A program made the position numbers and the translations under genes. DNA of 61,867 nucleotides, counting the filler, from Fonticula-like sp. SCN 57-25 (Eukaryota): assembly GCA_001724245.1 (NCBI GenBank). It is 11 parts of 11 records of this genome, joined end to end, with 100 filler letters (N's around TTAATTAATTAA, not from the genome) between each part and the next. Parts side by side here need not be neighbours in the genome. Positions count along the whole stretch, not along the records: positions 1 to 5,567 come from MEDX01000551.1; positions 5,668 to 11,226 come from MEDX01000552.1; positions 11,327 to 16,869 come from MEDX01000553.1; positions 16,970 to 22,503 come from MEDX01000554.1; positions 22,604 to 28,134 come from MEDX01000555.1; positions 28,235 to 33,764 come from MEDX01000556.1; positions 33,865 to 39,390 come from MEDX01000557.1; positions 39,491 to 45,013 come from MEDX01000558.1; 3 more parts are not named here. One strand, written 5' to 3'. The notes under the pieces were generated by a model. The model had not been told where the DNA came from and made no database searches. It worked only from the letters and a program-made list of their open reading frames with translations. Each line of letters begins with the position of its first letter. The stretch's first letter is position 1. Shown in pieces: positions 1-55,561 of this stretch.

Positions 1-945
1 TCTGATTCACCTGCGCGCTGCCGCCCTGCGCCCTCACTGCCATTGACTGCGGGCTGAACGTGCGCGACATGAGCGTCGTCGCCGTCGCCACTGGCCTCCC
101 CTGGAGCGGCGGCGACTGAGTCCGCTGCTTGCTGTCGGCCGCCAACGTCGGCGGTGACATGCCGGCGCCGCGCCTAGATCAGATCGGATCTGCGTCAGGA
201 TCACCAAAAAAAAAAAGATGATGTGCACGGACCGGTTGCCGTGTCGGGCAGACTGGAGCACGTCGGGGCGGCCGGCGAGCGGCGAGTTGGCGCGCACGCG
301 AATGCCCTGGTAGTAGTAGCGCGAGTGGCCGCGCTCGCCGAGGCGGCGCGTGCGGATGAAGGGGAAGACTTGGTGGATGACCTTGCCAAAGAGGGCAGAG
401 TTGAGGGGATCGAGATGGCGTTCGGCGCAGAATTCAGTGTAGTGGTCGTAGAGGAGCTGGCGGGGGAGGCTCACAGAGTCGTCGCACTCGTAGGTGGCGC
501 GGAGCCTGGGGGAGGGAAGGGATCAGCAGAGTGGCAAGATGAGGAGGCAAGACATCAAGTAACAAGGATCAGGATGGAAAGGGAGAAAGAGGTAAAAGGA
601 TGGAAGAGATGTTGCAAAGTGATGCAAAATGATACAAAATGGTGTAAAATTGGTATCAAAGAGGCCGAAAAGCGAGGCAAAAGATGCCACGAAAGCGACC
701 GAAGTGACCAGAAAAGGAGGGAAAAGGTGATGACCAATGACCACTGACAAATGCAAGCCACAATCCACAACCCACAAATGGCAAAAAACAAAAGAAAGCG
801 CGTACCATGGAGCGAGTACCGACTGCTGCGCCGTCGCGTTCTCGCTGAGCACTCTCGTCGTCGGCCCCGGCTCCTCTGGGCTACTGCTCATCTCGTCCTT
901 ATCACCACCACCCATCGCCGGCGGCGACATGGACGATGCCGACAT
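1..945 (-). CDS. RFX-family winged-helix transcription factor (3' partial, spliced)
   Basis: Spliced translation W|LRATYECDDSVSLPRQLLYDHYTEFCAERHLDPLNSALFGKVIHQVFPFIRTRRLGERGHSRYYYQGIRVR is an RFX DNA-binding domain. Intron 506-805 (GTACGC..CAG); second intron near 174-232. Runs off the contig end. Confidence 0.9.
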
Positions 946-1963
946 TCGGCCGCGCCGCTGTCCTTGCGCCTGCACAACACGTGCGCGAAGCGTTCAAATA
1001 AGGTGCGCGCCTGCTCGCTCTGCGTGGATGCGGCGTGGGAATTGCGGGCTTCGCGCGCGCCTCGTCACCGTCAACCGACGTGTCCACCCCCAAGCAGCGG
1101 CACGTGACTCGAATCGAGATGGCCATAAATAAACAATAGTCGAATAAAACCCACATAAAACCCGGTTTGAACATGGGACAGACGTGCAATACGAGCCAAT
1201 ATGGACATGACTAGGGGCAATTTCGTCCATAATAGTATCCATAGCGAATCCGTGTTGTCGCCGGTGAACGTGCAGCCAATGGCGGAGGGGGAAAGAGAAT
1301 GCTGAGGTGGGAATTCCGGGTGGGTAACTACGGGTGCCGTCGGGAGGGATAATTGTACAGGAATGTGTGGCAAAGGCGACTGACCAGGTTGGAATTCCAA
1401 GGCAGGTCCACGTGCGCCATGCGGGCAAAGTGATAGCGGCCATTAGTAAACCTGTTTCAACCATGACTTAATATGGCACAAAGGACACAGTTACGAAGAA
1501 AATAAATGTGGACTATTGTGTCCATTCAATACCTTTTAATATGGCCAACATCCTTTTTGTGCCTTTTTGTGCCTTTTTTTGACTTTTTGGCGCCTTTTTT
1601 GACCTTTTGGCGCTCTTTTTGAATTTCAAGCACAATATTTGCCCATAATACCCCCAATTTTCCATCTACTCTCACCAAGAATAACCTCTGAACTGAACTG
1701 TATTATTGATTAAAAGCAGCATCGAGCGGCCTCCGCTCTCCAGGGCGGGCAGGCAAAATCAAATCAAATATTCCATGTATGAAAGGCAGAGCGGCGCGGA
1801 TCAAACGCAGAGAGAAAGAAATCGTGATAAACAAAATAAAGGGGCATCGAAAAGCCGACGAGCGCGACGGTGTAGTCTAGCAGAGAATTGTGTCGAGGAA
1901 GCCTTTGATGTGTATCATACAGACGCTAAAGCGGCGAAGGCGGCGGCGGCGGCGGCGGCGGCA

Positions 1964-5567: not shown

Positions 5568-5667
5568 NNNNNNNNNNNNNNNNNNNNNNNNNNNNNNNNN
5601 NNNNNNNNNNNTTAATTAATTAANNNNNNNNNNNNNNNNNNNNNNNNNNNNNNNNNNNNNNNNNNNN
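5568..5667. other. Artificial contig spacer. Others at 11227-11326, 16870-16969, 22504-22603, 28135-28234, 33765-33864, 39391-39490, 45014-45113, 50637-50736, 56251-56350
   Basis: Ten identical 100-nt blocks of N with TTAATTAATTAA (stops in all six frames) separate contigs of 5.51-5.57 kb. Confidence 0.99.
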
Positions 5668-16969: not shown

Positions 16970-18975
16970 CCAGGCTGGCCAGTACGCGCCTTTTTTCATT
17001 ACTTTTCGATACTTTTTGTTGCTAACGGCTGCTGAAAATCAGCACGGCGGGCTGCGAAGTGCTGTTGCGTGCTGGCGCGCACCACACGCTGTGCGACAAG
17101 GAGAACCAATGGACCCCCCTCTTCTTTGCCGCGAACGAAGGCCACCTTGGCTGCGCGCGCCTTCTTCTTTCCGCCGGCGCGCAGGTTGACGCCGTCGACG
17201 ACAGCGGCTGGACGCCCTTTTTGCACGCGCTCTACGCCGGCCACATGGAGGCGGCCGCGCTCATGCGGTGCTCCCCCGAGCTCGCCGCCGCGCGCGCCGT
17301 GCGCACATCTCCGCCGTCGCCGCTCGTCGGGTCGCTCAAGCCCGCCGACGCGCCGCCCGCGCAGCCGACGCAGCAGCACGCCGCGATGGACGTGCTCGAC
17401 CTGGACGGCATCCCGTCGCTCGCGCTGCCGCCGCCGATCCTGCCCACAAAGGTGTACGGCCACCAGTCGCTCAAGGAGAACGCGCAGCTGCACATCCGAC
17501 TGGGCGGCGCAGGCCAGCCGCCACTCACCCTCGTGTACGCTCTTGACACGATTTTTTGATATGATAATGTGGATATATGTGCTTATTTTTCGTGCGCAGC
17601 CCCGAGCGCCGTCTCGCCTCGATGAAACTGATTATGCGCACGATGACTGGCATTGTCGAGAGCGTTGTTCTCCCCATGGAAGACGACACTGAAACCTTTG
17701 TACTGTCCCTCCCCTCTCTCGACAACTTTTCGCTCCAATTCGACCTCCTCCCCACCTTTGGCTCGCAGCTCATTGGCCGCGCCGCCGCCCTGCCCGCCGC
17801 CTTTGCCTTTGCCGCCTCGAGCGCGTCGCGCGGCACGATCGTCTGCCCCGTCTTTGACACGTACCTGCAAGTGATTGGCGAGCTCTGCTTTGACTTTGTC
17901 TTGATATCGCCGTACTCGCAGGTCGGCCGCACGCCGCCCAACCCGCACGCGCCGACGTACTGGAAGTCGACGGTGGCGCCGCCGACGCCGCCAGAGCGCG
18001 GCGGCCCCGCCGGCGCGGCGTCGCTCGTCCTTTCTTCGTCGCTCGCGCAAGAGTACGTCGTGCTGCCGGTCCAGATGACGCGCGACGCGCACGTGGTCGT
18101 GCACGACGTGCGCGGCATGCTCGACCTGCCGTTTCAGCTGTCCGTCGGCGACCTCGCGTTCGCGGAAGTGATGCGGTTGAGGCCGCCGACTGTGTACGAG
18201 GCAATGTTTGGGAAAGTTGGCGGTGTCGCGGCGCAGCGCACAGTGTCGCTTCACGAGGCGCTCAGCGTACGAAAACTGACATAAATCCATATTTAAAACA
18301 CGTTTTGTACTGATTTTGTCGCATTTTAGCTGCTGCCGGCGGGTGTTGGCGCGTGCGTGGAGCTTCTTTCGCCGCCGTCGTCGGCCGCGTTTGACCCGAA
18401 TGCGGTTATTGACACGCTGCTGGATGTGACGTACGCGGCGGCGGGGACGAGGTCGCTAATGTTTTGCGCGGATGAGCCGCATCTCTGCTTGACGCTCAAT
18501 CTCAAGCAGGCAAACTACCCAGTGTTTTTCAGGTGCGTAATAATGACATTTTAGTGGGAAATTGAAATGTTGTGGCGTGAATTGTCATTTTTTGGTTCTT
18601 TTGTGCTGTATTGAACACATTTTTGTTGTTTTCCGATGTATTTTCAACCGTTTCGCTCCATTTTTGCTCCATTTTCGCCCCTTTTGCTCACCCCCAATTA
18701 GGACGCGCGCCGGAATGGAACGTCGTTCGACCGACGCCCGTTGCAACTCTCTCCACCAAGCCGTCCGCTTTGCCAAATCCGCCAACCTTCTCGGCATTTT
18801 CTGCGACGCCACGCCGCTCGGGTGGGCGCCCGCGCTCGCGGCGGTCGTCAAGGAGGCCGGCGTCGTGCTGGGCACATTTGGCGCGGCCAACGACGACGCG
18901 GCGACAGTGCAGGTGCAGGAGAGGGCGGGTGTCGATGTGGTGCAGATTGGCGCAAAGCTGCATGTAAGGCGGTGA
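16970..18975 (+). CDS. Ankyrin + degenerate GDPD protein, Pho81/NUC-2-like (5' partial)
   Basis: Ankyrin repeats (WTPLFFAANEGHLGC), LALPPPILPTKVYGH, TYWKST, SSLAQEYVVLPVQMTRD (no HRG motif), AVRFAKSANLLGI. Confidence 0.75.
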
Positions 18976-31160: not shown

Positions 31161-31183
31161 ATCATTGACGGTTATTCGCGGCG

Positions 31184-33764
31184 ATGGACGAGCTGAATGA
31201 GCAGCAGCGTCTCGCTGTGACGTACGAGCCGCACGGGGCGCTCGTGGTGGTGGCGGGACCCGGGAGCGGCAAGACAAAGGTGGTTGTGCATCGGATCGCG
31301 CACATGATTGACGTGCTTCATGCCGCGCCATCATCAATCGTGCTCGTGACGTTTACCAACAAAGGTGCGCCACCCCCGTCTGTCATTGGACTGCGCGCTA
31401 AATGTCGTTTAGCCGCACGCGAAATGAAGCGCCGCGTGCGCGTGCTTGTCGGCGATGAGCGCGCGACACAGATCATTATGGGCACCTTTCATTCCGTTTG
31501 CGCGCGGTATCTCCGCAAGCATGGCGCCGCCGTCGGCATCCGCCCCTCCTTTTCCGTGCTCGATTCCTCCGAGAGCCGCGCCGTCATCAAGCGCATTCTC
31601 GACCGCCTCAAAATGACGGACATCCCCGTCGACCAGATGGCGCATTTCATCTCTTCCGCCAAGAATCGCAGCAAGACTGTCGACACTTCCGGCAAGGACG
31701 CCGCCTCGCACGATCGCATGCGCGTCTTTGCCGCGTACAATGATCAGCTGCGCGACGACAACTCGCTCGACTTTGACGACCTTCTCCACTTTGGCCAGCT
31801 TTTATTTTCCGAGCGCCCCGACGTGCTTTCCGCCATCCGCCACGTGCTCGTCGACGAGTTCCAGGACACGAACGAGCTCCAATACGACCTCGCGCGGTCG
31901 CTGTGCCGCACGACGGCGTCGCTCACCGTCGTCGGCGACCCCGACCAGTCCATCTACGGCTGGCGCCACGCGACGGCGTCCAACCTCACGCGGCGGCTGC
32001 GCGTCGACTATGAGCAGTGCGAGACAATCACGCTCGACACAAATTACCGCTCGACAAGCAGCATCGTACGCGGCAGCCAGCTCGTCATCGAGAGCGGTAC
32101 GAAAGACATTTTTTCGCTATTTTTGCGCACATTTTTAACCTCATTTTAAATAGAACCCGGTCGAAATAAACGTCTTTTCTGCACAGAAAACACGACCGGC
32201 GAGCCAATCAGCATGCTCAAATTCGATGACGGCGCGAGCGAAGCCTCCTTCATCGCCGGCGAAATCGCCCGCCTCTTCCGCGCCTCCCAAGGCCTATTCG
32301 ACTACAGCGACTTTAGCGTCCTTTTGCGCACAAATTCAATGTCACGTGGCTTTGAAGAAGCCCTTTCCCAGCGCGGCATTAAATACCGCGTCGTCGGCGG
32401 GCTCCGCTTCTTTGACCGCGCCGACATTAAAAACTGCATTGCCTACCTGCGCGTCGCCGCCAACGCCCACGACGCCGCGTCATGTGACCGCGTCATCAAC
32501 TTGCCGCCACGTGGGATTGGTGACGTCACGCTCGAGGCGATGCGCAGGGCGGCGCGCGAGCGGGGGTGTTCCTTGTATGAGGTGGCAAAGATGTGCGCCA
32601 ATGGGGGGGCGGCGGCGCTCAATATAAAGAGGGCGGGCGAAGTAAAGTCATTTGTTGATACGATTGAAATGTTACAACGAATGGTCGCAGAGGTACGAAA
32701 GAGGAAAAATGGGCTTATTATAAAGCTAATATGTGGTGAGTAGAAGGCGAGGCTGCAGGATATGTTGCGTGCGCTGGTGGAAAAGACAAAGTATGAGGCG
32801 TTTCTGGTTCAGAGGCACAAGGAAGACGCAGACACGCGATGGGAAAACGTTCAAGGTGCGATACAATATATGGATTGTGCTGTTTTTTCTATTTAGATTT
32901 TGATCATTTTTGTGTCATTTCGGTCAATTTCAGTCATTTTGACCACTGTTTGTGCACATTTTTTTTCGTTTCGCCCTCTTTTTTCGCACTTTTTTCGCAC
33001 TTTACCAACATTTTACTTACCTTTTCCCTCAGAATTGATCAGTTATGCGGGCGATTTCGAAACAGAACACTCTTCCGACCCCGATCTCCTCACCCGCTTC
33101 CTCGACAGCGCCGTCATGGAAAGCGACGGCGGCGACAAAAAATCCCAAGAAGCCGCCGCCGCCTCGCTCGGCTTCGTCACCCTGAGCACGATGCACGCGG
33201 CCAAAGGCCTCGAGTGGCCCGTCGTGTTCGTCCCCGGCCTCGAGTCCGGCGTCATCCCGCACCAGCGCAGCGCCGAGACGCCCGGCGGCCTCGACGAGGA
33301 GCGCCGCCTGCTCTACGTGGCCATGACGCGCGCGCAGGCGCTGCTGTACATGTCGTATGTGGGGCGCCGCACGGTGAATGGCGACAGCAGCGCGAGGAGA
33401 TTTAGCCCTTTTTTGTACCCGCTCGTGCGCGCTGGTGAGCCGATGCAGTTGGGGTGCAAGTTTGTGGGGAGCTGCCGAATGGGGCCGCCGACAATTGGCG
33501 CGGAATTTCTGGTTGAAACGGACGCGCTGCTGCACAAAAGTGTGTTTTCAAGTAAAAAACCGCTTGAAAACTGCATTGATTATGTGCCGGCGGCGGTCGT
33601 TGAACGCGTAAATACGTTTCAATTTGCGCGCGAACAGGAAAATCAAGAGTGGAAAAGCAGCGAAAAAGGCGGCGCAAAGCGATTTCTCCTCTTTGAAAAC
33701 GACATTGACTTGTACGACGGCGACGAAGCAAGCCTACCAATGACGTCACCGATGACGTCATATT
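31184..33764 (+). CDS. UvrD/PcrA/Srs2-like SF1A DNA helicase (3' partial)
   Basis: AGPGSGKT, GTFHS, VDEFQDTN, VVGDPDQSIYGWR, NYRST, STMHAAKGLEWPVVF, EERRLLYVAMTRA; introns include 32856-33032. Confidence 0.95.
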
Positions 33765-33869
33765 NNNNNNNNNNNNNNNNNNNNNNNNNNNNNNNNNNNN
33801 NNNNNNNNTTAATTAATTAANNNNNNNNNNNNNNNNNNNNNNNNNNNNNNNNNNNNNNNNNNNNATGTC

Positions 33870-35256: not shown

Positions 35257-36167
35257 ATGGCCGAGGAAGCAAAGAGAAAAGCCGCGTACCAAGCTGTAGA
35301 GGAGAACGTTACCAAGGACACCCGAATTGTTGGAATAGGAAGTGGCTCTACAGGTTTGTGAACAATTTGATTTTGAAAACTAAACATTGAAACATACAAA
35401 ATATTCAAAACAAACAAACACTGTATTCAAAACAAATGATGCATTCAAAACACTTAAAACCAACACATTCAACACAAACAAAACACCCAACACAAACATA
35501 TTCAAAACATCATGTGAACGCATTCCAAAACCTTGCAGTGGTTTACCTTGTTGAACGATTGGCTTCGTTTGTGAGCGAGCATAAGCTGAAGCCAATTCGT
35601 TGCGTGCCGACAAGCTACCAAGCAAAGGAGTTGATCCTGCAGAATCCCCAGGCCCTAATCCTCTCCTCGCTGGATGTCGATCCAGAGTTGCAGGTCGCAT
35701 TCGACGGTGCAGATGAGCTGGACCGCCATTTCAATTGCATCAAGGGCGGCGGCGGAGCGCTCTTCCAGGAGAAGGTGGTCGCCAGTTGCGCGAAGCGATT
35801 CGTAATTGTCGCAGATTACCGGAAGGACAGCGACTCCCTCGGCGAGCAGTACAAGCGCGGCGTACCCGTTGAAGTGCTGCCACTCGCAACGGTGCCCGTG
35901 CTCAAGAGGCTGCACGCGCAGTTCCCGCAGTACAGACCCGTTGTGAGACAGGCTGGCGCATCAAAAATTGGGCCTCTCGTGACGGACAATGGCAACTTCA
36001 TCATTGATCTGCAGTTGCAGGGAGAGGTGATCAAGAATCCACCAGCGTTGCACAGCGAATTGAAGCAAATCGCAGGGGTAATTGAGACTGGCTTGTTCTG
36101 CAACATGGTACACTCCGTCTATTTTGGCATGGAAGATGGCAGTGTCGTGAAAAAGTGCAACCCATGA
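35257..36167 (+). CDS. RPIA: Ribose-5-phosphate isomerase A
   Basis: VGIGSGST|V, DGADE, IKGGGGALFQEKVVA, VTDNGNFIID, GVIETGLF; intron 35354-35538. Confidence 0.97.
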
Positions 36168-36559
36168 GATAGTATTTCCAGAGGGTGGGAGAAATGTAGA
36201 GGAAAGAGAGAGAAACAGAGGGAAGGTGAGAGAGAAATATAGAGAAAAACAGAGGAAAGGGAGAGAAGTACACTGAAATACAGTGAAAAACAGAGAAATA
36301 CAGGATGTAAAAAGAAGATGATAAAATGCAGAGAATATGTGATGAAAAACGTATCAATTGGTTTGCAGCAGGAACATTTTTATTGGAAACCACGCAGATT
36401 TGCCCCCAACAGCGAGGAACCCAGTGAAAACGAGAGAGGAAGTGAGGAGAGAGGAAGTGAGGAGAGGAGAGAGGAGTGAAGAGAGGGAGTAAGAGATTAA
36501 AGAGAGGAGTGAGGAGATTGAAGAGAGATTTGACACACAGAGGAACGCAGTGCTTCTTA

Positions 36560-37783
36560 TTAGAGACAGGAACGCAGATAGACTACTGTCTTGCTGCCAA
36601 TTGCAAACAATGCCACCCAAAAACTGAGAATCGCTAGTTGTATCATTTTGAGCCTCATCGGATCCACATTCAACTTCATGTGCTGCTGCTGCATATTCTG
36701 GTCCTGCTTACTGTGCTTCCCATTCTGTTGCTTCACTCCACTTTGTTCCTGTTGCACTCCATTCTGTTGCTTCACCCCACTTTGTTCCTGTTGCACTCCA
36801 TTCTGTTGCACCCCATTCTGTTCCTGTTGCTTCACCCCATTCTGTTCCTGGTGAACGTCTGGAACGAGACCATTATGATTGCGCTTGAGATTGCTGATCA
36901 TCTTCTCCTTCTCCTTGAACCTCTCGTAGCACCAGTCCGCGAGTGCGCGCTTATCATGGGTCGGTGGGAGTTCCGAGATTGCAAATCTCTTCACATGCAC
37001 ATACACTTTGAACCCAGTGAACGCGCGCGGGTTCGTGAAAATCTGGATGATATTCGGCGCCACATGGTGCTCCCCATAGCCAATTGTGAAATCATAGATG
37101 TGGGTGATGTGCCGGTTCGGCAGCGCGCACATTTGTCCAACCGTCGCCAGGAACCCCTTTGTGCGCGGGATCAGCACGTGCTCGAATTTCAGATCCTCGC
37201 GCTGCAGCACCCGCTCTGCGAACGCGTGGCTCTCGCGCATGTGGCGCTCCGTGAACCGCGTGCCCTCCAGAAAACAGACGAGCCACAATGGCGCGCGCTG
37301 CTGCACCCTCAGATGCGCAAATGTGCGCGCGATGCTTCGCTCGTCCTGCTCCCAGTTCCGCTTCAGCATGATCATCCCCGATTGCTGGATCCCGAAACCG
37401 ATCAGTGGGATCCACTTGAGCTCCTCCTTTGCAAAGTACTTGACCCCGTTGATCACACCCTTGCGCAGGGCGACGGAGTGGAGCGCGAGAAAATCCGTGT
37501 AGCTCAGATGATTGCTGAGCACCAGTGCGTTCTCCCCCTGCTGGACACCGGGAAGGTCGTCACCCGTGAGCACGCATTCGATACCGGCTACTCGCTCGAA
37601 CACATCTTGGAACATTTGCTGCACTAATCCGAAGAGCCACCCGTTGATCGCCACCGCCTGGCCTGGTGACACGTAGGAGAGCACAAATGTGGCGCATTGC
37701 ACAAGGTTCATGAAACCGAGTGTGCCCACTATTGGCCCAAAGTAGAGGAGTCCGTTCAATGCTCGCCAAAAAAGTGCGCTCAT
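36560..37783 (-). CDS. PlsC-family lysophospholipid acyltransferase (LPAAT/LCLAT-like)
   Basis: NHLSYTD (NHxxxxD), FAKEELKWIP, FLEGTR, VLIPRTKGF, YDFTIGY; Gln-rich insertion near the C-terminus. Confidence 0.93.
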   Translation of the reverse strand: MSALFWRALNGLLYFGPIVGTLGFMNLVQCATFVLSYVSPGQAVAINGWLFGLVQQMFQDVFERVAGIECVLTGDDLPGVQQGENALVLSNHLSYTDFLALHSVALRKGVINGVKYFAKEELKWIPLIGFGIQQSGMIMLKRNWEQDERSIARTFAHLRVQQRAPLWLVCFLEGTRFTERHMRESHAFAERVLQREDLKFEHVLIPRTKGFLATVGQMCALPNRHITHIYDFTIGYGEHHVAPNIIQIFTNPRAFTGFKVYVHVKRFAISELPPTHDKRALADWCYERFKEKEKMISNLKRNHNGLVPDVHQEQNGVKQQEQNGVQQNGVQQEQSGVKQQNGVQQEQSGVKQQNGKHSKQDQNMQQQHMKLNVDPMRLKMIQLAILSFWVALFAIGSKTVVYLRSCL

Positions 37784-37856
37784 TTACTCTCAGTTGTGTG
37801 ACGTGGCAAACTGGGTGTTCAAGTGTGTTTGTTTTTTTTTTTGTTTAAAAAAATTC

Positions 37857-38008
37857 AAATGAGAGCATCAATTATGAAAAATGGGAGTGTCAATTATGAA
37901 AAATGAGAGTGTCAATTGTGTAAATGATAGAATCAACAAGGCAAATGAGAGCATCCACTATGAAAAATTATCGTATCACAAATGATAGAATCAACAAGGC
38001 AAATGAGT
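37857..38008. repeat. Degenerate ~21-bp tandem repeat plus a duplicated 28-mer
   Basis: AAATGAGAGCATCAATTATGA-like units; AAATGATAGAATCAACAAGGCAAATGAG occurs twice (~37922 and ~37980). Confidence 0.7.
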
Positions 38009-38347
38009 TTTGTGGAATTACCACTCATATTGTCATTGGAGACTCAGAATAATTCATAATATTCTCCAATGCATTGACCCAATCACAACAACAACAACAC
38101 CTGGGATCTTTATGGGAAATGATTTGTGCACAACAATTTCCAGTTACTGTTTTCTTTCCCTCCCAAAATTCTCTATTGACCAAATTGATTATTTGCGATT
38201 GGCACTAACATGTAGCTGTGAGATGGTGGACATGGGTATTATGTTAAACAATTTTTTTTTTCAATTGTGACAGCTCAATGAATAACATTCTGTAAATTGA
38301 AAAAATTTTCCTGCCCAATGGTGAACGTGCAACAGAAAATTCACATG

Positions 38348-39390
38348 CTAGTCATCTTCGTCTTTTCCAATTGTGATGTGCCCTTGGCCAAAAATAAGCC
38401 AAAAAATACCACCAATTGTGTAGAGGACAATCATTACAACAAAGACAATAGTCCAACTCTTTGTCAAATCTAATATCAATCCAGTTACAATCGGTCCAAC
38501 AATACCAGTGATATTGGAAAAAGTGTTTCCAATACTATACACAAGTGCTGCATACTTGGGTGCACAAATATCCTGTTACAGTGTTACGATAGGGAAATTA
38601 TAAAGATATCTCCAACTCCTCTCATGACGTACCAGATGATTCACAGAAACTGATGCATTGGTAAAACTTGCAAGACCTAAGCACAGACAAATATACACCA
38701 GGGCAAAGTAAATATTCGGCGCTGCAAATGCACACAGGATAAGCATGCAAGCGGGACCAAACATGCCGATTGAATTCATGATGCAACGAGTGCTCCGTAC
38801 AGAGATTGACAATTTGGCAATCATCAAATCAGCCATCAATCCACAGGCAATGCAAACAACACCCTGAATAGCAAACGGGAGCATTGCAAACCAACCCAAA
38901 TTGTCAATAGAGACTTGGAATTTGGATGAATAAAACTGGAAATCTAAGCATCTATCATTACCATCATTCAATTGACGTACAGTTGGAAGCCATGTGAGCA
39001 TAAAGTAAAACCCATAGCTGTTACAGAATTGTCCAATGAAAATGGACCAAGCAGCAGGAGAGAGGAAAATATCCTTCAAAACAACAAGCTTTGAAACGAC
39101 AACACTCATTGTCTGCCTACCACTTGTGTGTCCATCTCTTTCTGAATAAAGTTGCCTAGACTTGGTTGACTGTTGTTTACAATGTAAAATCCTAATAGAG
39201 TAGAAGATGAGTAGATGAGTAGATGATGAGTAGAAGAAGAGTAGAAGACGAATAGAAGATGAGCAGTGATAGTATTAAACACAACAACAAACCGCCACAC
39301 AATCACATAGGGGCCCCACACAACTGCAATGAACACAAGCCCTGCCAGTCCAAAGCTGTAAAAAATTGTTGGCCATCCGTAGGCGCTGAT
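38348..39390 (-). CDS. SLC17/ACS-family MFS anion transporter (5' partial)
   Basis: YGWPTIF, FCNSYGFYFMLTWLPT, VNHL|DICAPKYAALVYSIGNTFSNITGIVGP. Confidence 0.9.
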
Positions 39391-39490: not shown

Positions 39491-42400
39491 TATGTTGCCG
39501 ATGGCCAGTGCCGCGAGTGCAGCGCCACGTGTACGTCATGCAGCGGCGCCGGCGACTCGGCGTGCACTTCCTGCCCCACCGGCAAGGTGATGGAGGAGGG
39601 CGCGTGCGTGTCGTCGTGCAACTCTACGAGCACGGCCAATCTTGCCGGCACGTGTACGCAGTGCACTTCGCCGTGCGCGTCTTGCTCGGCGCTCACGAGC
39701 ACGTCTTGCCTTTCGTGCGGCGCTGGAATGCTTCTTCACGGCTCCGAGTGCGTCGCTTCGTGCCCCGCTGGCACGTACAATGCCGGCGACGGGACGTGCG
39801 CCACATGCCACTCTTCGTGCGGCACGTGCAGCGCTGGCGGCGCCTCGGCGTGCACGTCGTGCTCCAATGTGCTGAACGTGCTGTCGGCTGGCACGTGCGT
39901 TGCTTCGTGCCCGTCGGGTATGTTTGCCGACGTCAACTATGAGTGCAAGCCGTGCACTGCGCCGTGCACCACGTGCGTCAACTCTGCTTCTTTCTGCACG
40001 GCGTGCGCGGGCGGCACGGCCCTTCCGGTGCCGTTCATGGGCAGCTGCGACGCGTGCCCCACTGGCGCCTTTTTCGACGGCACCACCTGCGACGAATGCG
40101 GTAGCTCGTGCGCCACGTGCGAAGATGACTCGACGTGCGAGACGTGCAGCGACGGCAATTTTATGCGCGCCGCAACGAGCGAGTGCGTTTCTGATGATAT
40201 TTGCTCGAGCTTGCCCGGCGTTGTGATTGGCGACGACTGCGTTGACTGCGACTCGTCGTGCAACTCGTGCGATGGCCCGTTGTCGACCGACTGCAAGACA
40301 TGCTCGCTGCCCAATTATTGGAACGCGGCGAACGGCACCTGCACGCCGACGTGCCCCGACGGCTACTATGGCGACCCCGACGCGCTGCAGTGCCTGCAGT
40401 GCACGTCGCCGTGCGGAAAGTGCACATCGTCGTCGCCGAGCAGCTGCACGGCGTGCGAACCGGGCCTTGTCCTGAACGGAAATGTGTGCCGCGCCAACTG
40501 CGACGCGGGCGAGTACGCTGACGCGAACGGCGTGTGCACTGCCTGCGATGCTTCGTGCGCCACGTGCTCGAGCGGCGCGGCCGACGCGTGCCTTTCGTGC
40601 GCCGACGGCAACATGCGCCTCACTGCCGGCACGTGCACCACTGTCTGCAACAATGACGAGTTTGTCAACTTTGACGATGACTGCGCGTCGTGCAAGCCGC
40701 AGTGCACAACGTGCTCTGGCTCTGCCGGTTACTGCACTTCATGCACGGACGGCTCGCTTGTCGCCATGCTCGGCGTGTGCCAGGCCACGTGCGACGACGG
40801 CTTTGTTGCCAACGGCGCCCTCTGCGTCGCCTGCGACGAGTCCTGCGCCACGTGCTCAGCCACCGCCAACAATGCTTGCCTCACGTGCCCGCCCGGCTTT
40901 TTCATGCGCTCTGGCGAGTGCGTCACCGAGGCGCAGTGCGTCGGCAACCGCGGCATGATTGTCGGCGACGCGTGCGAGCCGTGCGCGTCCGAGTGCCGCA
41001 CGTGCACCAACACAACCTCGAGCGGCTGCCTCACGTGCGCGACGCGCGGCTATATCATGACGGGCGGCGTGTGCTCGCCCTTCTGCCCCGACGGCTACTA
41101 CGCGTCCGACGATGGCGTGTGCACGCTCTGCACGTCGCCGTGCGAGAAATGCACCGGCGCGGGCATTTGCGAGACGTGCGTGTCCGGCTCGTACCTTTCC
41201 GGCACGACCTGCATGACCTCGTGCCCGCCGCGGACGTACATGTCGGGCGACCGCTGCGAGCCGTGCGCGTCGTCAGACTGCCTCGCATGCGACGACGGGT
41301 CCGCCGACTCGTGCTCGGTGTGCGCGCCGCCGTCGTACCTGACGGAAGGCCGCTGCTTTGCGTCGTGCATGGAGAGCTCGTACCCCGTGGCCGCCGGCGT
41401 TCTTCGACTTTGCCTTGACTGCCCGCTCGAGTGCGGCGCGTGCACGCTGCCGTCGCAGTGCACCAACTGCCGCAACGACTCTTATGTTTTGCTTGACGAC
41501 CGCTGCGTCGCAGCGTGCCCCGGCGGCAACTACATTGCTTCCGACGGTCAGTGCCTGCCGTGCCACAGCGGCTGCTCGCGCTGCTTTGGCGGCGCCGCCG
41601 ATGAGTGCATGGCGTGCTCGTCCGTCTCGTCTGCCCTCTTTGAAAACGAGTGCATTGCCTCGCTGGACTGTGCCATGGCCGGCGGCTCGCCGCACTATGC
41701 CTCTGGCGGCGCATGCCTCCGCTGCGACCCTTCCTGCGCGAGCTGCACCGGCAGCGACCACGAAAGCTGCACCGCCTGCCCCCCCGGCCACGTTCTTCAA
41801 GCCGGCATGTGCCTTGACGAGTGCGACGCGCGCTGGTTCGAGTCGTCGCCCGGCATTTGCAGCGAGTGCTCGCTCGTGTGCGACTCGTGCGCCGACACGT
41901 CCGACCACTGCACTGCCTGCCCGCCCGGCCTTTTCCTGCACGGCAGCACGTGCATTGCCAACTGCCCCGTCGGCACATTCGCCACGGCCGAATTCGAGTG
42001 CGCGCCGTGCTACTCTTCGTGCCTTCGCTGCGACGGCCCGAGCCCCTCCGACTGCCTTCAGTGCAACACGACGACCACCGTGCTCGACTTTGGCTACTGC
42101 AACCCGCAGTGTCTTCCCGGCACGTACGCCGCGCTCGGCGTCTGCGAAGCGTGCGACCCGATGTGCCTCGCCTGCAATGGCACAGCGGCAGTTTGCTCGT
42201 ACTGCGCCGTTCCGACCGACAACCTTTACGCTGGCGGCTGCGTCACGACGTGCCCCGACGGCTACTACGCCGAGGAGCAGATCTGCTACAAGTGCGACCC
42301 GACCTGCCGCACGTGCACTTCGGGCGGCGCCGACGCGTGTCTCATCTGCGCCGACGTGCGAACCTTTAACGAGAATGTGGGCAATAGCACGACTGGCTCG

Positions 42401-43477
42401 TGCACGTGCCCCGTTGGTCTGTTTGACGCGCCCGACACGCCGACGTACCTGTCGGCGTACAATCAGGGACTGTGTCTGGACTGCACGCTCATGCCGGGCG
42501 GGTGCAGCGGGCTGCTCGCGGTCAGCTCGCCGGCCGAGCTCGCCGTCGCGCTCGCAATTCCGGTTGTCAGCATTCTTGTGCTGCTGCTGATTGCGTACCT
42601 GCTAAAGAGAAAGTACCCGCATTCGAATGCCTATGTGCTGCTCGGGTTGGCCATGGGTGTCTACACGGTGGCGACCAATATTATTTTCCTGATTTATCTG
42701 CAGGAGATTCCGGGGCTGCAGATTGAGTATTACGTCATGATTGTGACGCTCAGTGCGACGGCGGCATTCAATATTGCGTCTATTCTCTACGCCTATATCG
42801 CCACCATCAAGAGCTCTCTCTACGTACGTGCAAACTTCATGTTGTTGAAGATGGTTTGCTAACAATATTGAAACTCTTTTGATGTTTTTTGATGTTTTTT
42901 TATGGTAATTTTTTCATTTTTGATGCATTTCTGGATGTTTTTCCATGTTTTTCTATCATTTTTCCATGTTTTCCTTTCATTTTCCTTTACTTTTCCTTTA
43001 CTTTTCCTCACTCAGGGCATTGAGTTCTTCCGCCGCCACTGGGTCACTGTCTCCCTCGTCGGCTTTGTCGGCATCCCCTCCAACGAAGCCGTCCCCCTCC
43101 TCAGCTCGCGCCTCTTCAACCGCCCCGAGCTCTCTCTCACGTGGCCCGAAGGCCTCGAAAACCGCGTCGGCGCCATCGGCGTCGCCACGACGCTCCTCGG
43201 TGATTTGCCGCGCTTTGTCATCCAAATCTTTGTCGCGACCCAAATCGGCCTTTCAATTGTGCTGTTCCTGACACTGCTTGGCTCGGGCGCCGGCATGCTC
43301 GTCGGCCTTTTGCGGCGCATTGTGCTCATTGTCATTTCGCGGCACCAGAGCCGCCACAGCGCGTTCCTGTCGCCAGAGGATAAGCAGTTTGGTATTGAAA
43401 TGTCGGGCAAGACGATTCATAACTCGCTCAGTACAATGCCAAAGAAGGCGACTGGGCTTGTCGTGCTGTCAGAGTAG
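39491..43477 (+). CDS. Furin-like Cys-rich repeat surface protein with ~6-TM C-terminal module (5' partial)
   Basis: About 20 CxxCxxxCxxC..CxxC..C..CPxGxY repeats, then hydrophobic helices; intron 42824-43015; LLSSRLF..LLGDLPRFVIQIF. Confidence 0.88.
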
Positions 43478-50736: not shown

Positions 50737-53043
50737 TGTCGACATCGGATAGGAGAATGTTGTAGCCTTTTTGGAGGGATTTGTAGATGAATTCGGTGCG
50801 TGCGTTCATGACGGATTGGTAGGCGACGGAGCCGTAGGTGTAGGCGGGTTCACTTGAGCTAGGGAGGGGAAAGGGGTTAGTATAAGGGAAGAAAGAAATA
50901 GATCATGTGATCATCATGTTTGTATACACATCATGACTACATACACACAAGGTAGACATGTTCATACATACATACATCATCATGTTAAGATACTTACATA
51001 CACATGGGCATCATGTTCACATTATCATATCACGCACATCATAACCATACATCATCATCATCATACAGATCATACTCACAGTCATCATCATCATACTCAC
51101 ATACACATCATGAGCATGTTGACATATACATATACATACACATACACATACACATACATCATCATCATGTTCACATGTACATCATCATGATCATCATATC
51201 ATCATCATATCATCATCATGTTCTCATACATACACATACATCATCATACATACAAACACAATCATCATCATCATACATCATCATGTTCACATACATGATC
51301 ATGATCATGTTGACATACATACATACATATATACATCATAATGTTCACATGTACATTATCATCATCATATCATCATGTTCACATACATCATATTCATCAT
51401 CATATTCATCATATATACTTTTCTTTTCTCCCCTTCTTTCCCTTTCCTTTCCCTTCTTTCCCTCTTTCGTACCCCACTTTCCCCTTCTTCGCCTTGAACT
51501 CTTCCGCCATCGCCGACTCATAATACACCACCGGCAACCCCATGCCATGCAGCGTCTCATATATATCCATATCAATTGCATGAAACAAAAAGTTGTCCAT
51601 GCCAATGCGCTGAAGCGAGCACATCCAGTTGAGGGCAAAGTCAAGGTAGCCGGAATTGACAGAGGCAATGATGATGTTGCGGGTGACGTAATCAGCTTGT
51701 TGGTGGAGGGAGACGTCGAGGGATTGCTGGACGCGTTCGAACGTGCAGTGGGGGCAGGAAGAACCGGTTTTTGATGGGGAAAATTGGTCATTTTCCATGT
51801 AAAAAGTGTCTTTTTTGACGTAATTTGTGTCTTTTTCAAAAGTTTTGCCTGAAATTTCGTCTTTTCCCACACTTTTTCCCACACTTTTCCCGCCATTTTT
51901 CAAGCCGACGAGGCGCACGTCGCATGACGAAATGTCGCCAATCTTTTTCGGGTCCACTGGCTCGCCCGCCACGAGCTGGATATTATAGTCTGTACCGACA
52001 CGTCTATGGCTGCCGCCAGCGGCCATGTGGTTCAAATGGACTGCCAATATGACGTCGGTGCAGTCGACGGCGACGCTTGTCTTGTTGCGAATGTACTCTG
52101 CGAGCAGCCAGTTGTCCCATCGGATGCGGCCGACGACGAAAGGCGGGAGCGCGCGCACGTGGGCGGTGCGCTGGATAAAGTAGTCGATGCCAAAGCGGCC
52201 GTGAAGGGGCGCGTACTTGAGGGCGGTGAGGCGCAGATCGGCGCGCCAGGCGGGATCGTCAAAGTCGATGAGGCGCGGATGCGAGAGATCGCGGCGCTGG
52301 CCCACCATCACGAAATCGGAGTGATGATGCGCGACATGGCGGAGGGCGAGGAGGAGATCGTCAAAGTAGACCATGTCAGAGTTGCTGTACATGAGGAAGG
52401 GGGTGAGGGTGCGATGCGCGGCATCGGCGAAGAGGCAATCGTAGCGGGGGATGCCGAGTTCTTCGTGGATGCAGGGGATCGCGTGGCACTCAAAGCTCGA
52501 TCCGCTCGCGCGAGCCTGTGCGAAAAAAGAGCGTATTGTTAGACAAAAGAGGCAAAAAAGAGGCTAAAAAAGTATGAATGTGCGTACAGATTCGGCAAAT
52601 GCGCATGATGTGGCATCGCCGTACGCGATGACGTGCACAAAGGGAAGTTCGGTCCAGCTGCGAATCGCGTTGTACGTATGCAGCGCGCCTAGCCACTCTT
52701 CCTGCCCGTCCACACTGCATCAGCGCTCATGTGTTCATGTACTGAGCCAAATGATTCGTACCTGGCTGCCGAATGCGCCCTGCGACAGCGACGTGATGCC
52801 ATCACGCAATATGGTGAAAATAGTAAGTACGGCATCGTCGCCGTCAAACATGTCGGGCCGGCCATCCAGCCCGGCGACTTTTTGCCGCAGCAGCTCACGC
52901 GGCGGCGTCACGGCGTCGCTGTCTCTCCGGGCGCCGGACCCGTACAGCAGCAGCGACATGAGCTGGAAGGCGATGAGGGCGCCGATGACAAGCGCCACAA
53001 CGCGCATGCGGCGATTCAGCCGCGGCATTGATATCGTCACCAT
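50737..53043 (-). CDS. Type II membrane two-domain glycosyltransferase (GT-A-like domain + nucleotide-diphospho-sugar transferase/GT77-like), 3' partial
   Basis: N-terminal TM; YSNSD, GIDYF, VGRIRWDNWL; then VNSGYLDFALNW..AID..GYNILLSDVD; intron 50859-51472. Confidence 0.78.
50859..51472 (-). repeat. 614-nt intron made of CAT/ACAT microsatellite with recurring CATGTT(C/G)ACAT
   Basis: GTACG donor and TAG acceptor restore the frame (KVG|SSEPAY); low-complexity content is directly visible. Confidence 0.85.
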
Positions 53044-54072: not shown

Positions 54073-54329
54073 GTGAAAAATGTGCCGCTGGTGGAGAAAA
54101 CGAATGTGAAACGGCGGGAAGGGACACCTAATTTAGGATGGAGGCGGGCGAGAATCGATGTTTCATCGTGACACTATGCGCTGCCATTCTGTTCTCTGTA
54201 GATAATAAGCCAATAAAAATTCAATGCTGGACGCAGATGAAAGACAAATTAAGCACTTTTTCAATAGAATAAAAGGAAAACACATTTAATAGTAAATTAT
54301 TGACAGTTTATTAAAGACATTATCCACTT

Positions 54330-55561
54330 CTACTTGCTGACCATCTTTTTGCTCTCTGTGATCTCGCCTCGCAGATCCGTCTCCATGAGGCGCCTCACCT
54401 CTGCGACGTCGATGCCGAGGCCAAGCAGGTACGACAGCTTTGTCACGGTCGCCTCGGTCGTCATGTCGAGCGCCGACAGGCAGCCGATCTTTTCGAGCTG
54501 CTTGCCGGTCTCGTAGGCGCCGAGGTTGACCGAGCCCGACTGGCACTGCGAGCCGATCACGACCACGATGCCGCGCTCGATCGCGCTGGAGACGAGGGAA
54601 ATGAACTCGGTCTTGCGGACGGACACGTTGCCGGTGCCGTACGTCTCGAGAACGACGCCCTTGATGGACGACTCAAACACCGTGCGCTAGAGAAGGGGTG
54701 AGTGGTACGGACTTCAGGCAGAAGGCAAAAAAAGTGGCGCAAAAACACACAAAAAGTCTCAAAAACACACCAAAAACACACCAAAAACACACCAAATTCA
54801 CACAATAATGACACAAAAACCAATATTGTTTTACGTACGAGAACATCGTCTGTGAACCCTGGTGTGAGCCGCATGACGACCACCTTTGTGTCGAATGATG
54901 ACGACACGCGGAACCTCCCCCTCGGCTGCTCCCTAACGTTCGAGTTCGACACTTGAATTGTGATGCCGAGGGTCGCCAGCGGCGGGAAATTTGGCGACTC
55001 GAATGCGTGCAGATCCCACGAGTCTGTCTTGATGGCGCGGTTGCCGCGAATGAGCTGATCATTGAAAAAGATGCACACCTCGGGGATCTCAAACTTTGAC
55101 GCGCAGTAGCACGCGACAATGACGTTCCGCCGCGCGTCGCTGTAAACGCTCCCGAAAGGCAGCTGCGATCCGGTAAAGATGACGGGTTTGCCGAGATTCT
55201 GAAGGCCAAAGCTGACCGCCGATGCCGTGTACGCCATCGTGTCCGTGCCGTGGATCACCACAAAGCCATCATAGTCGTAGTAGTTCTTTTCAACCAGATG
55301 GATGATCTGCTTCCATTCCTCGGGCGTCATCGACGAGCTGTCGACAAGCGGCTCGAACTCTATAATCTCGTACGTCGGCATCTCGGAGCGCTCGAGCTCG
55401 CTCAGGACGGCGAGCTGCTCGGCGAGAAAGCCCTTGATCGGGCGAAGAGCGCCGCCGTTCTTTTCGTCCTCCTTCATCACCATCGTTCCGCCAGTGTTGA
55501 GGATGAGGACGCGGCGGCGCGCGGGGCGAACCTCTGGAAGAACTGAAGCATCCCGATCCAT
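54330..55561 (-). CDS. ansA: Type I L-asparaginase (AnsA/ASPG type, no ankyrin tail)
   Basis: NTGGT, VDSS, HGTDTMAYTAS, TGSQ, RGNR, ETYGTGN, DMTTEATVTKL; intron 54687-54838. Confidence 0.95.

Follow-up and report, generated by a model that had tools for sequence, protein, structure and literature searches.

Phased A-tracts bend DNA. To our knowledge, PATC-type DNA has been well studied only in nematodes. The introner elements of Micromonas and Aureococcus form a second, longer intron class in small-intron genomes. The PATC arrays of C. elegans are of kilobase scale, make up ~10% of the genome (by a score different from ours) and accompany intron expansion on chromosome arms (PMC4947018). Worm PATC introns are described as nucleosome-depleted and supercoil-associated, and a 2026 model derives nematode PATCs from Helitron repeats and assigns them a germline anti-silencing role (excerpts of bioRxiv 10.64898/2026.08.08.743475). 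A literature search limited to titles and abstracts returned nothing on point for such arrays in protists or in this lineage, nor for the flank skew described below.

The genome analysed here belongs to a single-celled opisthokont (57% GC, 9.5 Mb) that seems to be uncultured. It holds hundreds of phased arrays (44 in a 756-kb sample), forming a graded series that starts with 3-4 tracts in 50-nt introns and ends with long rows. We find the phasing to be real and to extend across the genome, and we regard the islands as a PATC-like variant of curved DNA whose function we infer.

Sequence sample and intron prediction

The window, i.e. the whole stretch of 61,867 nucleotides that was analysed, consists of 11 separate contigs (5,514-5,567 bp each) joined by linkers in near-descending order of size. 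Because these contigs are unlinked, neither adjacency across the N gaps nor distance from the telomere repeat, which occurs on 2 contigs only, carries meaning. Intron boundaries are predictions from our own gene finder and a rule, include visible errors and lack transcript confirmation. Several long introns (e.g. 32856-33032 and 35354-35538) escaped the gene finder or received wrong boundaries, and island introns were therefore re-bounded by a nearest-donor rule. This rule errs too, having taken the intergenic array at 1554 as a 341-nt intron. Besides the 44 arrays in 756 kb, a set of 117 arrays was used, 7 of which gave no usable boundary and were left out of the island-intron length set. Curvature was measured as the in-phase tract count only.

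Phased islands in the window

All six long introns named in the initial annotation lay where it placed them, had GT..AG ends and joined open frames. Their flanking exons matched the Pfam RFX, UvrD, RpiA, asparaginase and furin-like families; the exon 3' of 18701 matched no Pfam family, and the gene there is probably ankyrin/GDPD-like, judging from its ORFs. AA/TT spectra were tested against 500 dinucleotide shuffles and 500 run-preserving shuffles. Of the eight islands originally listed as phased, six gave the anticipated helical peak, at about 10.2-10.9, above both controls (Table 1). For the RFX intron, 3 of 500 and 11 of 500 shuffles reached the observed value. The array 3' of the RpiA stop passed the first control only (35 of 500 run-preserving shuffles reached its value), and its place in the class is doubtful. 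The RpiA intron failed both controls, with A-run spacing peaking near 8, and was removed from the class. Both weak islands sit on contig 33865-39390, a compositional outlier whose tetranucleotide distance exceeds that of all 128 reference blocks. This composition makes the contig a suspected contaminant; its RpiA is the sole RpiA copy found.

Table 1. Features of the window, with AA/TT spectral peaks and z scores (dinucleotide/run-preserving shuffles)
Position	Strand	Feature	Properties	AA/TT peak	z
506..805	-	300-nt RFX-gene intron	T-tracts on sense strand, array 616-682, moderate phasing	10.6	3.5/2.4
1554..1620	+	Intergenic T-tract array, 7 tracts	G-rich left, C-rich right	10.2 (1550-1625)	8.2/4.4 (1550-1625)
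18533..18701	+	169-nt last intron, putative ankyrin/GDPD-like gene	Phased T-tracts, G-rich 5' to C-rich 3'	10.3	8.5/8.3
32097..32153	+	57-nt minimal intron, UvrD/Srs2-like gene	Four phased T-tracts		
32556..32855	+	G-rich, C-poor flank 5' of long intron	GC skew +0.44, +0.42		
32856..33032	+	177-nt intron, UvrD/Srs2-like gene	Phased T-tracts	10.6	7.7/6.5
33033..33182	+	C-rich exon flank 3' of long intron	GC skew -0.24		
35354..35538	+	185-nt RpiA intron	A-rich sense strand, atypical donor GTTTGT, no phasing		0.8/0.6
36180..36350	+	Purine-rich 10-11-mer array just 3' of RpiA stop	Weakly phased		4.6/1.7
42824..43015	+	192-nt last intron, furin-like-repeat membrane protein	12 phased T-tracts at 42877-43005	10.5	7.2/5.0
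50859..51472	-	614-nt long intron, GAT/ATGT microsatellite-filled	Unphased sister class		
51727..51918	-	Probable 192-nt intron	Phased A-tracts on sense strand, period 10.5		
54687..54838	-	152-nt last intron of asparaginase	Phased T-tracts 54741-54796, 11-mer units	10.9	8.0/4.1

The intergenic array carries T on the strand opposite to both flanking genes (myosin I 3' end and RFX 5' end, both on the minus strand). Along the furin-like array, spacers drift from GATG to CCTTTAC. The microsatellite-filled intron has the same purine-5'/pyrimidine-3' polarity as phased long introns. Two introns, 32097..32153 and 51727..51918, were absent from the initial list; the latter is in frame and stop-free in one frame, and could be coding. 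Sense-strand bias, G-to-C polarity and phasing in minimal introns had also been overlooked. Four public runs were compared with 28215-33764 for strain indels, a diverged strain being too fragmentary to read. One public-run contig spans the 177-nt intron with no gaps and 4 differing letters over 1,168 nt; gaps at 32906-32931 in the public runs may belong to another array.

Helical phasing across the genome

Four T-tracts matched 1,419 times genome-wide at a spacing of 10-11 bp, compared with 31 times at 13-14 bp. Helical An/Tn clusters of the PATC kind stood far above shuffled DNA, with an array period of 10.62 bp (95% 10.57-10.65). Tract chains numbered 45 at a period of 10.6, 0-2 at 7-8.5 and 0-1 at 13-18, and the period fell within 10.25-11.0 in 80 of 87 introns. 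Location, too, was PATC-like, i.e. non-coding and mainly intronic (36 of 44 arrays; 7 were called intergenic and 1 exonic). The phasing signal in exons was weak.

Spacers yielded length to tracts. In unselected long introns the modal spacer was 8 nt where the two tracts together measured 6, and 5 nt where they measured 12. A-tracts shared the T-tract register (best period 10.55) in 65 of 98 long introns (p 4e-4) and 65 of 93 short introns, and therefore fit a double-stranded geometry. Short introns of 40-60 nt were phased as well, containing 72 and 58 T3 pairs at 11 and 12 nt (37 and 37 expected), and their adjacent spacers had a similarity of 0.303 against 0.286 at random (45 pairs), i.e. units were not duplicated. 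The common A/T register and the phasing of short introns without duplicated units therefore indicate that the signal is DNA-helical. With its constant period and tract-dependent spacers, the pattern bears out the PATC-like character first ascribed to it.

All 36 intronic arrays had their T-tracts on the sense strand, and sense-strand T4 outnumbered A4 by 1,308 to 98 in long introns and 672 to 72 in short ones. Spacing variance rose linearly by about 0.47 per step; arrays therefore have no long-range phase lock. Cross-intron phase between neighbouring introns was ~0 at 120-260 bp (cos -0.05, 0.09; noise 0.06), and array register bore no or a marginal relation to exon A/T runs (upstream 0.04, downstream 0.09; noise 0.04-0.05). 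Tract phase was tied to the branch point (R 0.35, p 0.003). Phased and isolated tracts had similar flanks, with a modest rise in A before the T-run (0.36 vs 0.27), and kinetoplast-type tract flanks were set aside on this likeness.

Intron length and the nucleosome scale

Most introns had first been placed at ~30-60 nt. A short class exists, peaking at 45-55 nt, and the lower limit was set too low (33 of 1,581 predicted introns were <40 nt). Above it, the length histogram showed a tail and no second mode near 150-200 nt or multiples. Island introns had a median of 242 nt (IQR 168-329), with 22 of 103 falling within 140-200 nt, and their lengths were unphased modulo 10-11 (Rayleigh p>0.5). Coherence faded gradually, with no break near 147 bp. 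Given no mode, broad lengths, no such break and a register lost between introns, the nucleosome-length unit proposed in the initial annotation finds no support.

The 117 arrays had a median length of 78 bp, short of the hundreds of bases to kilobases expected of PATCs; 90% were <=152 bp and the longest was 375. Arrays covered about 0.54% of the sample. Arrays were over-represented close to contig ends (20 of 43 at a distance of 6 kb or less; 16% expected), and some longer ones may thus be cut off by contig breaks. A weaker link to the nucleosome scale survives, in that 90% of arrays are <=152 bp and the flank skew sets in at ~100-170 nt and reaches ~200 nt. The islands may have a structural role in chromatin.

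Growth of long introns

The claim that islands share no primary sequence held at the level of families. In an all-vs-all comparison, 1 of 4,560 pairs aligned at >=60% cover and >=80% identity, and no near-identical intron families of the introner kind were found across unrelated genes. Islands had no monomer in common beyond a modest vocabulary (1,035 island BLAST pairs, against 810 and 816 after spacer-letter shuffling), and 596 of the 862 spacers were distinct. Spacings of 10-11 made up 585 of 862, without positive serial correlation and with a similar period across loci. Ordinary minisatellites, with a locus-specific inherited unit length, were rejected on this constant period and on the mixture of 10s and 11s within arrays, in line with the initial view that the islands are more than decayed minisatellites.

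Spacer identity in long introns was 0.50 at lag 1 and had dropped by lag 8 to 0.33, the level found between introns; this decay shows that local copying within arrays is real. A 251-nt phased intron of the asparaginyl-tRNA synthetase gene occupies the same codon boundary as introns of 40-56 nt in 5 of 5 loci from other eukaryotes. By its position, this island intron is evidently an old intron that grew. In this gene, the only one compared, a second long intron misses the position found in 3 other loci by a single base. Long introns end in the genome's normal GTRCG, branch point and YAG.

Arrays cluster in long-intron-rich regions (variance/mean 2.1; rho +0.52), tens of kilobases elsewhere being empty, and 0 of 32 phased long introns lay in the first fifth of the CDS. 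They showed no link with convergent gene pairs (p 0.85) or regional GC3 (rho -0.11). The 80 metagenome loci included no close relatives (best 62% over the whole protein), and 0 of 80 carried arrays, many being transcripts or having short introns only.

Mirror skew around long introns

Among long introns, 88 of the 96 with phasing and 49 of the 51 without it had G-to-C polarity. Both kinds sit in a mirror G|C skew that reaches ~200 nt into the flanking exons and sets in only once intron length passes about 100-130 nt. The jump in flank skew was ~0 for introns <100 nt, 0.24 at 100-130, 0.51 at 130-170 and 0.55-0.81 above. Because non-phased long introns show the same polarity and flank skew, phasing is not the cause of the skew. 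C was lost on the 5' side and G on the 3' side in 45 of 52 introns, and two-fold sites agreed. Lost G was replaced by C rather than A at four-fold sites and by A at two-fold sites, which resembles selection more than one mutation type. Upstream four-fold sites showed no increase in T (0.10 vs 0.12), and exons beside ordinary intergenic regions had almost no skew. Short introns <=250 nt upstream of long introns were skewed (+0.19 vs -0.09; 26 introns).

Proposed explanation and its alternatives

As an explanation of the whole, we tentatively favor, at somewhat under an even chance, PATC-like, intrinsically curved patches that accumulate inside ordinary spliceosomal introns. Non-coding DNA keeps short A/T tracts on one helix face (10.5-10.6 bp), even in introns of 40-60 nt and where units are not duplicated. 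Some existing introns, chiefly those in the 3' half of a gene and within particular gene clusters, grow to 100-500 nt. The decay of similarity and the one ancient position show that they do so by local copying of units of about one turn, whose sequence drifts while the spacing stays fixed. The sense-strand position of T would follow from the general T-richness of introns here, itself due to splicing constraints or to mutation linked with transcription. Rows of tracts should bend DNA almost in plane, as is established for A-tracts. By analogy with C. elegans PATCs, an intron expanded beyond about a nucleosome length might become a nucleosome-poor, easily deformed gene-body spot, which could absorb transcriptional supercoiling and set the flanking nucleosomes that carry the mirror skew; weak selection might maintain register. 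Several observations count against this explanation. Curvature by itself would give no strand bias, whereas T4 far exceeds A4. Spacing shows no long-range phase lock, non-phased long introns share the polarity and flank skew, arrays are short and sparse in the sample, and the second asparaginyl-tRNA synthetase intron is offset by a base.

A functionless footprint is somewhat unlikely. The rotational setting of nucleosomes would bias substitutions to A/T once per turn, transcription would make the sense strand T-rich, and slippage would inflate introns under weak length selection. Phase-dependent mutation is described inside worm PATCs (part of PMC4947018) and in Drosophila nucleosomes (part of the review PMC8228248), and random-walk spacing, phasing of short introns without duplication and non-phased microsatellite introns of the same polarity in the same regions all agree with it. 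However, a fixed nucleosome lattice should carry register between introns, slippage alone fails to explain units held at 10-11 without serial correlation, and the replacements of G resemble selection. Nucleosomes also figure in the initial annotation's version, in which every long intron, at 150-200 nt, would serve as a module positioning one nucleosome. The array lengths, the threshold and reach of the skew and the 10.5-bp dinucleotide period, a classic nucleosome signal (PMC8228248), speak for it, but we consider it highly improbable given the island-intron lengths, the unbroken coherence near 147 bp, the long homopolymeric tracts on one strand and the nucleosome depletion reported for worm PATCs (excerpts of bioRxiv 10.64898/2026.08.08.743475). 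The skew raises another reading, which is quite unlikely: expanded introns would be initiation sites or places of repeated breakage, either meiotic (Spo11) or fragile, where single strands exposed by resection are depleted of C to the left and of G to the right, slippage during repair makes the intron longer, and phasing marks bent, accessible DNA. The order of the skew is the 5'C-3'G single switch of bidirectional resection (as given in part of PMC6786661), the genome contains a Spo11/TP6A_N match, and nearby upstream short introns are skewed too. Against this, T is flat upstream, exons adjoining intergenic regions, the usual break locations, are almost unskewed, and sites are clustered with long stretches empty.

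An RNA device for splicing long introns in a 50-nt-intron genome, with U-tracts as spacers, is very unlikely. Either G-rich 5' and C-rich 3' ends would pair to bridge the splice sites, or G-only and C-only flanks would keep them unpaired. The polarity, the sense-strand bias, the link to the branch point and the precedent of bridging introns (fish; GGG/CCC in human; part of PMC4691745) fit, as do a weak excess of pairing between an intron's own 5' and 3' parts (p 0.016-0.065; 42 of 74) and one striking rod of 6-bp stems. Folding z was -1.0 against dinucleotide shuffles, but 0.02 and 0.05 against tract-preserving shuffles in 34 introns, and RNA fold-back was rejected once this initial signal had vanished. 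Own exon flanks paired no better than foreign ones (p 0.53, 70 introns), A-tracts lie in the T register, an intergenic array exists (1554-1620), and the 10.6 bp is left without a reason. It is barely credible that introner or transposon insertions (e.g. Helitron minisatellites) created or filled the introns. About 80% of worm PATCs are reported to derive from Helitron minisatellites (excerpts of bioRxiv 10.64898/2026.08.08.743475), and our islands share some vocabulary; yet family-level alignment is rare, most spacers are distinct, one long intron is at an ancient position, and intron ends are normal for the genome. The Helitron_like_N profile gave no match, its positive control being likewise silent.

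A broader reading, which we rate as unlikely, takes expanded introns above about one nucleosome length as a distinct gene-internal chromosomal element. A nucleosome-free, curved or low-complexity core with ~200 nt mirror-skew flanks that rewrite synonymous codons would mark recurrent break or replication-initiation sites, having grown from 50-nt introns without a transposon. If so, PATC-like DNA arose independently in a unicellular opisthokont from a minimal-intron helical bias. 

Of the two features, the length-gated mirror skew is the less usual one and could reflect chemistry at breaks, in replication or at nucleosome boundaries. The graded intron series is a clean natural setting in which to ask whether chromatin-dependent mutation writes the helical phasing or selection maintains it.

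Comparison with known systems

Like the introners of Micromonas and Aureococcus, the islands accompany a longer second class of introns in a small-intron genome, but they have no family-level identity, broad lengths and one ancient position. Bridging introns, (AC)m-(GT)n in fish and (GGG)m-(CCC)n in human (part of PMC4691745), similarly have complementary end compositions; here folding gains nothing over tract-preserving shuffles, the skew enters exons, and bridging leaves the helical period unexplained. Nucleosomal WW periodicity and nucleosome-inhibiting barriers (part of PMC8228248) share the 10-10.5 bp A/T period, AT-rich barriers and compositional oscillation in flanks, whereas here homopolymeric tracts are visible in single sequences, register does not pass from one intron to its neighbour, and the flank signal is strand skew rather than GC content. 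Bent kinetoplast minicircles and prokaryotic A-tract periodicity (PMC1474062 and PMC3431218) also show in-phase A4-6 over 100-200 bp and a period near the free helical repeat; the present arrays are nuclear, intronic and transcription-oriented, with differing spacers at hundreds of independent loci.

The closest likeness is to Caenorhabditis PATCs as described in PMC4947018, PMC1474062 and bioRxiv 10.64898/2026.08.08.743475: A/T tracts once per turn, intronic as well as intergenic, the lack of one consensus, tandem-type units and clustering where introns are longer. An Argonaute-type Piwi domain is present in our genome. The Pre-SET (H3K9-type methylase) profile gave no match, but its control was silent as well, and neither this search nor the one that found no eukaryote-type DNA methylase can prove absence; the sole DNA methylase match lay in an intronless phage-like gene cluster. 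No Helitron link was found with the silent-control profile. The period here is 10.6 rather than about 10, and arrays are mostly 50-150 bp rather than hundreds to thousands. In contrast to the worm, nearly all tracts are T on the sense strand, with G-to-C polarity and exon-flank skew, and the host is single-celled, small-genomed and GC-rich, with phasing in 50-nt introns too. Arrays in such a compact unicellular opisthokont suggest a second route to PATCs without a germline or a transposon.

Sample and host

The source assembly comprises 9.5 Mb in 749 contigs. The window draws on 11 separate contigs of 5,514-5,567 bp in near-descending size order, joined by N-linkers (the first at 5568-5667) of the stop-codon type. 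As these contigs are unlinked, gene neighbourhoods seeming to cross the gaps are artefacts. The host, a eukaryote, has spliceosomal introns. For an exon of a class I myosin, the named sequences that match best come from a chytrid and from vertebrates (58-59% identity). This suggests a single-celled opisthokont without any close named relative among those matches. Both RNA silencing and meiosis are plausible in this host, given a single encoded Piwi-domain (Argonaute-type) protein and a match to Spo11/TP6A_N (fetched stretches L205 and L206). The TTAGGG telomere repeat is found on only two contigs of the whole assembly, and at 61830-61867 it directly abuts an ORF with a GTPase-like P-loop motif.

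The unbiased sample consisted of 756 kb of genome fetched blind to the feature. Forty extra stretches were fetched, 38 of them picked around matches to a strict T-tract pattern. Annotation used a self-trained gene finder with a strand-symmetric non-coding model and a long-intron prior without a mode. Islands were compared with 500 dinucleotide and 500 run-preserving shuffles. By rule, 103 island-bearing introns were bounded; this set contains some rule errors and leans to strong arrays, and 7 of 117 arrays, having no boundary, were left out of it.

Further features of the window
Feature	Position	Description
Two large cysteine-rich membrane proteins	22630-28134 and 39491-43477	Sushi-like repeats and FN3-like domains (seen on inspection); Pfam matches to furin-like repeats
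39-bp coding tandem repeat	36719-36846	Encodes QQNGV-type C-terminal tail of acyltransferase-like ORF
614-nt non-phased intron	50859-51472	Filled with GAT/ATGT microsatellite

Helical phasing of T-tracts

The phased-tract pattern is real. All six long introns named by the initial annotation (starting at 506, 18533, 32856, 35354, 42824 and 54687) carry GT..AG at their ends and join open frames. Their flanking exons gave RFX, UvrD, RpiA, asparaginase and furin-like family matches, with one exon unmatched. One contig from a public run covers the 177-nt intron (32856-33032) gap-free; because the run could be the source sample itself, the match verifies nothing beyond the assembly. The proposed phasing of these introns and two further islands (1550-1625 and 36180-36350) held against both controls in six of eight cases, moderately so for 506-805. 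Island 36180-36350 passed one control only, and the RpiA intron (35354-35538) failed, its A-run spacing peaking near 8 nt. Both weak islands lie on one contig (33865-39390), whose tetranucleotide profile is more distant from the genome's than all 128 reference blocks and whose CpG o/e is 0.72, versus 1.15-1.38 in the rest of the window. A GC of 0.45, A/T-ending codons, mostly intronless genes and an atypical donor were also observed there. This contig may be foreign, possibly another organism's, yet it carries the sole RpiA copy found.

Four T-tracts spaced by 10-11 nt gave 760 + 659 matches genome-wide, and spacing of 13-14 nt gave 22 + 9 (overlapping matches in both cases). A chain search returned 45 arrays at a period of 10.6, 0-2 at 7-8.5 and 0-1 at 13-18. 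Autocorrelation peaks extended as far as 120 bp, with signal in introns and intergenic DNA and hardly any in exons. The period was 10.62 bp (block bootstrap 10.57-10.65), the per-intron median 10.56 (10.25-11.0 in 80 of 87), and directly measured tract spacing averaged 10.50.

Outside the window, 44 merged arrays comprised 36 in predicted introns, one in an exon and 7 called intergenic, several of which look like missed introns. The sense strand carried T in all 36 intronic arrays. Of 117 arrays, 48 were followed by a branch point and YAG on the strand carrying T, against 4 on the opposite strand. Arrays were clustered, with 18 on one 83-kb contig and none on another of 65 kb (variance/mean 2.1 across 83 bins), and their density followed the share of long introns (rho +0.52, partly true by definition). 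Array length had a median of 78 bp (90% at most 152 bp, maximum 375 bp). Twenty of 43 arrays lay no more than 6 kb from a contig end (16% expected), so the assembly probably breaks inside arrays, leaving long ones underestimated in number.

The register is DNA-helical and predates intron expansion. The modal spacer of unselected long introns shrank from 8 to 5 nt while the summed flanking tracts rose from 6 to 12 nt. Rare sense-strand A-tracts shared the T-tract phase (best period 10.55), with positive agreement in 65 of 98 long introns and 65 of 93 short ones, a result to be expected if tracts of both kinds curve the double helix in the same direction. Within 40-60 nt introns, T3 pairs were in excess at 11-12 nt (72 and 58; expected 37 and 37) and deficient at 17-18 nt (12 and 16; expected 29 and 28), and neighbouring spacers were not duplicates (identity 0.303 versus 0.286, 45 pairs). 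Within long introns, spacer identity was 0.50 at lag 1 and had dropped by lag 8 to 0.33, the level seen between introns; this decay indicates local copying with drift. Steps of 10 or 11 nt (585 of 862) were mixed without positive serial correlation, and tract-distance variance grew linearly by ~0.47 per step; spacing obeys a local rule, not a rigid lattice.

Polarity of long introns and their flanks

From 5' to 3', long AT-rich introns fell in G (0.29 to 0.11) and rose in C (0.12 to 0.32). Skew fell in this direction in 88 of 96 long introns with phasing and in 49 of 51 without it; the latter are often GAT/ATGT microsatellites. Those 51 introns are low in CpG (o/e 0.48) and high in TpG/CpA (1.5), although no eukaryote-type DNA methylase was found in the genome. 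A C5 DNA-methylase match was found once only, in a phage-like cluster free of introns (fetched stretch L204:1-2281) whose ORFs look HNH-like and terminase-small-subunit-like on inspection; the cluster is probably a contaminant or an inserted element.

The flanking exons are skewed as well. Four-fold sites no farther than 100 nt from 83 phased introns had C 0.28 and G 0.49 upstream and C 0.64 and G 0.18 downstream, compared with C/G of 0.45/0.35 and 0.42/0.38 at 664 short introns. The direction agreed in 45 of 52 testable introns, and non-phased long introns had the same flank skew. At two-fold sites C was down upstream (0.61 versus 0.72) and G downstream (0.66 versus 0.86). The skew jump depended on intron length, being ~0 below 100 nt, 0.24 at 100-130, 0.51 at 130-170 and 0.55-0.81 above. 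It was maximal 30-120 nt from the intron edge and had faded by about 200-250 nt. Short introns just upstream of long ones were skewed too (+0.19 versus -0.09; 26 introns). Exons adjoining ordinary intergenic regions had almost no skew, and genes without long introns had little at their ends. A neutral-site GC skew wave with a quasi-period of ~750 bp was confined to long-intron-rich regions (stretches L004-L083; contigs C2, C4, C5, C9 and C52 of the source assembly, G000). Long introns lay late in genes (median position 0.66 versus 0.43; 30 of 39 genes have them farther along than short ones), with no phased example of 32 in the first fifth, and tended to adjoin one another at gaps of 150-450 nt, a spacing that produces the ~750-bp wave in regions rich in them.

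Intron length

The 1,581 predicted introns peaked at 45-55 nt. The second mode expected at 150-200 nt was absent, the tail being flat between 100 and 280 nt, with 10-28 introns in each 20-nt bin. Nor do island introns form a nucleosome-sized class, with a median of 242 nt (IQR 168-329) and only 22 of 103 at 140-200 nt. Their lengths showed no phasing modulo 10-11 (103 introns), and register was not carried across between neighbouring introns. The nucleosome-length reading of these introns is not supported.

Possible mechanisms

Our analysis establishes helical register, sense-strand T bias, local copying and regional clustering, together with 3' bias, polarity and length-gated flank skew. A-tracts in phase bend DNA. 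We tentatively favour a reading by analogy, in which the arrays would be curved, nucleosome-poor patches within gene bodies that take up supercoiling from transcription and set the position of flanking nucleosomes. Hyperperiodic worm DNA is bent, as reported from gel and AFM work in PMC1474062, and a preprint describes worm PATC introns (periodic An/Tn clusters) as nucleosome-poor and supercoil-absorbing (bioRxiv 10.64898/2026.08.08.743475). A neutral footprint of phase-dependent mutation and slippage seems unlikely, if a serious contender; phase-dependent mutation is described in PMC4947018 and PMC8228248. Break and resection sites might underlie the flank skew, whose direction matches the 5'C-3'G order left by bidirectional resection as described in PMC6786661, and a Spo11-type domain is present; upstream four-fold sites, however, show no rise in T, and we regard this origin as improbable. 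A module built on a single nucleosome is more improbable still, given the broad intron lengths and the coherence of 48 long introns, which faded gradually to 200 bp with no step near 147.

Bridging of intron ends through RNA, for which PMC4691745 describes a precedent in bridging introns, ranks just below break sites in probability. Pairing between an intron's own 5' and 3' ends was slightly stronger than with foreign ends (42 of 74; p 0.016-0.065 across three window sizes), and predicted folds were more stable than those of dinucleotide shuffles (mean z -1.0). This gain vanished when tracts were kept and spacers shuffled (z 0.02 and 0.05; 34 introns), and exon flanks had no preference for their own partner (p 0.53; 70 introns). 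Composition alone might still have a splicing role. In one 233-nt intron (L038:90-322; C2:60090-60322), the 5' GTGGGG spacers are exact complements of 3' CCCCAC spacers and a rod of 6-bp stems with U-U loops is predicted, a single case atypical of the class. Least probable, and very much so, is that transposon or introner insertions created or filled the introns. Local BLAST matches linked 1,032 of 4,560 island pairs, and 810-816 of 1,035 matches survived shuffling of spacer letters; only one pair aligned at family level (at least 60% coverage at at least 80% identity), bearing out the initial view that the islands are not one repeat family. In the asparaginyl-tRNA synthetase gene, moreover, a 251-nt phased intron occupies the codon boundary at which all five other-eukaryote metagenome loci checked have introns of 40-56 nt, and the 233-nt intron next door is one base off an intron in three other loci. 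A Helitron domain search of the genome found none, its control being likewise silent.

Comparison with known periodic clusters

Literature searched by title and abstract contained nothing on point about skew beside long introns or about phased arrays in this lineage or in protists; most subscription papers lay outside this scope. The 2016 survey (PMC4947018) gives PATC scores of 9.8% for C. elegans and 0.05-0.30% for protists whose GC exceeds 50%; among its entries compared here, S. pombe and Neurospora were the only unicellular opisthokonts. Arrays make up about 0.54% of our sample, a figure from a different method and not comparable with those scores. Because the arrays differ from C. elegans PATCs in the length feature, and PATC function would apply here by analogy only, we do not class them as PATC members; in pattern, the two are alike.
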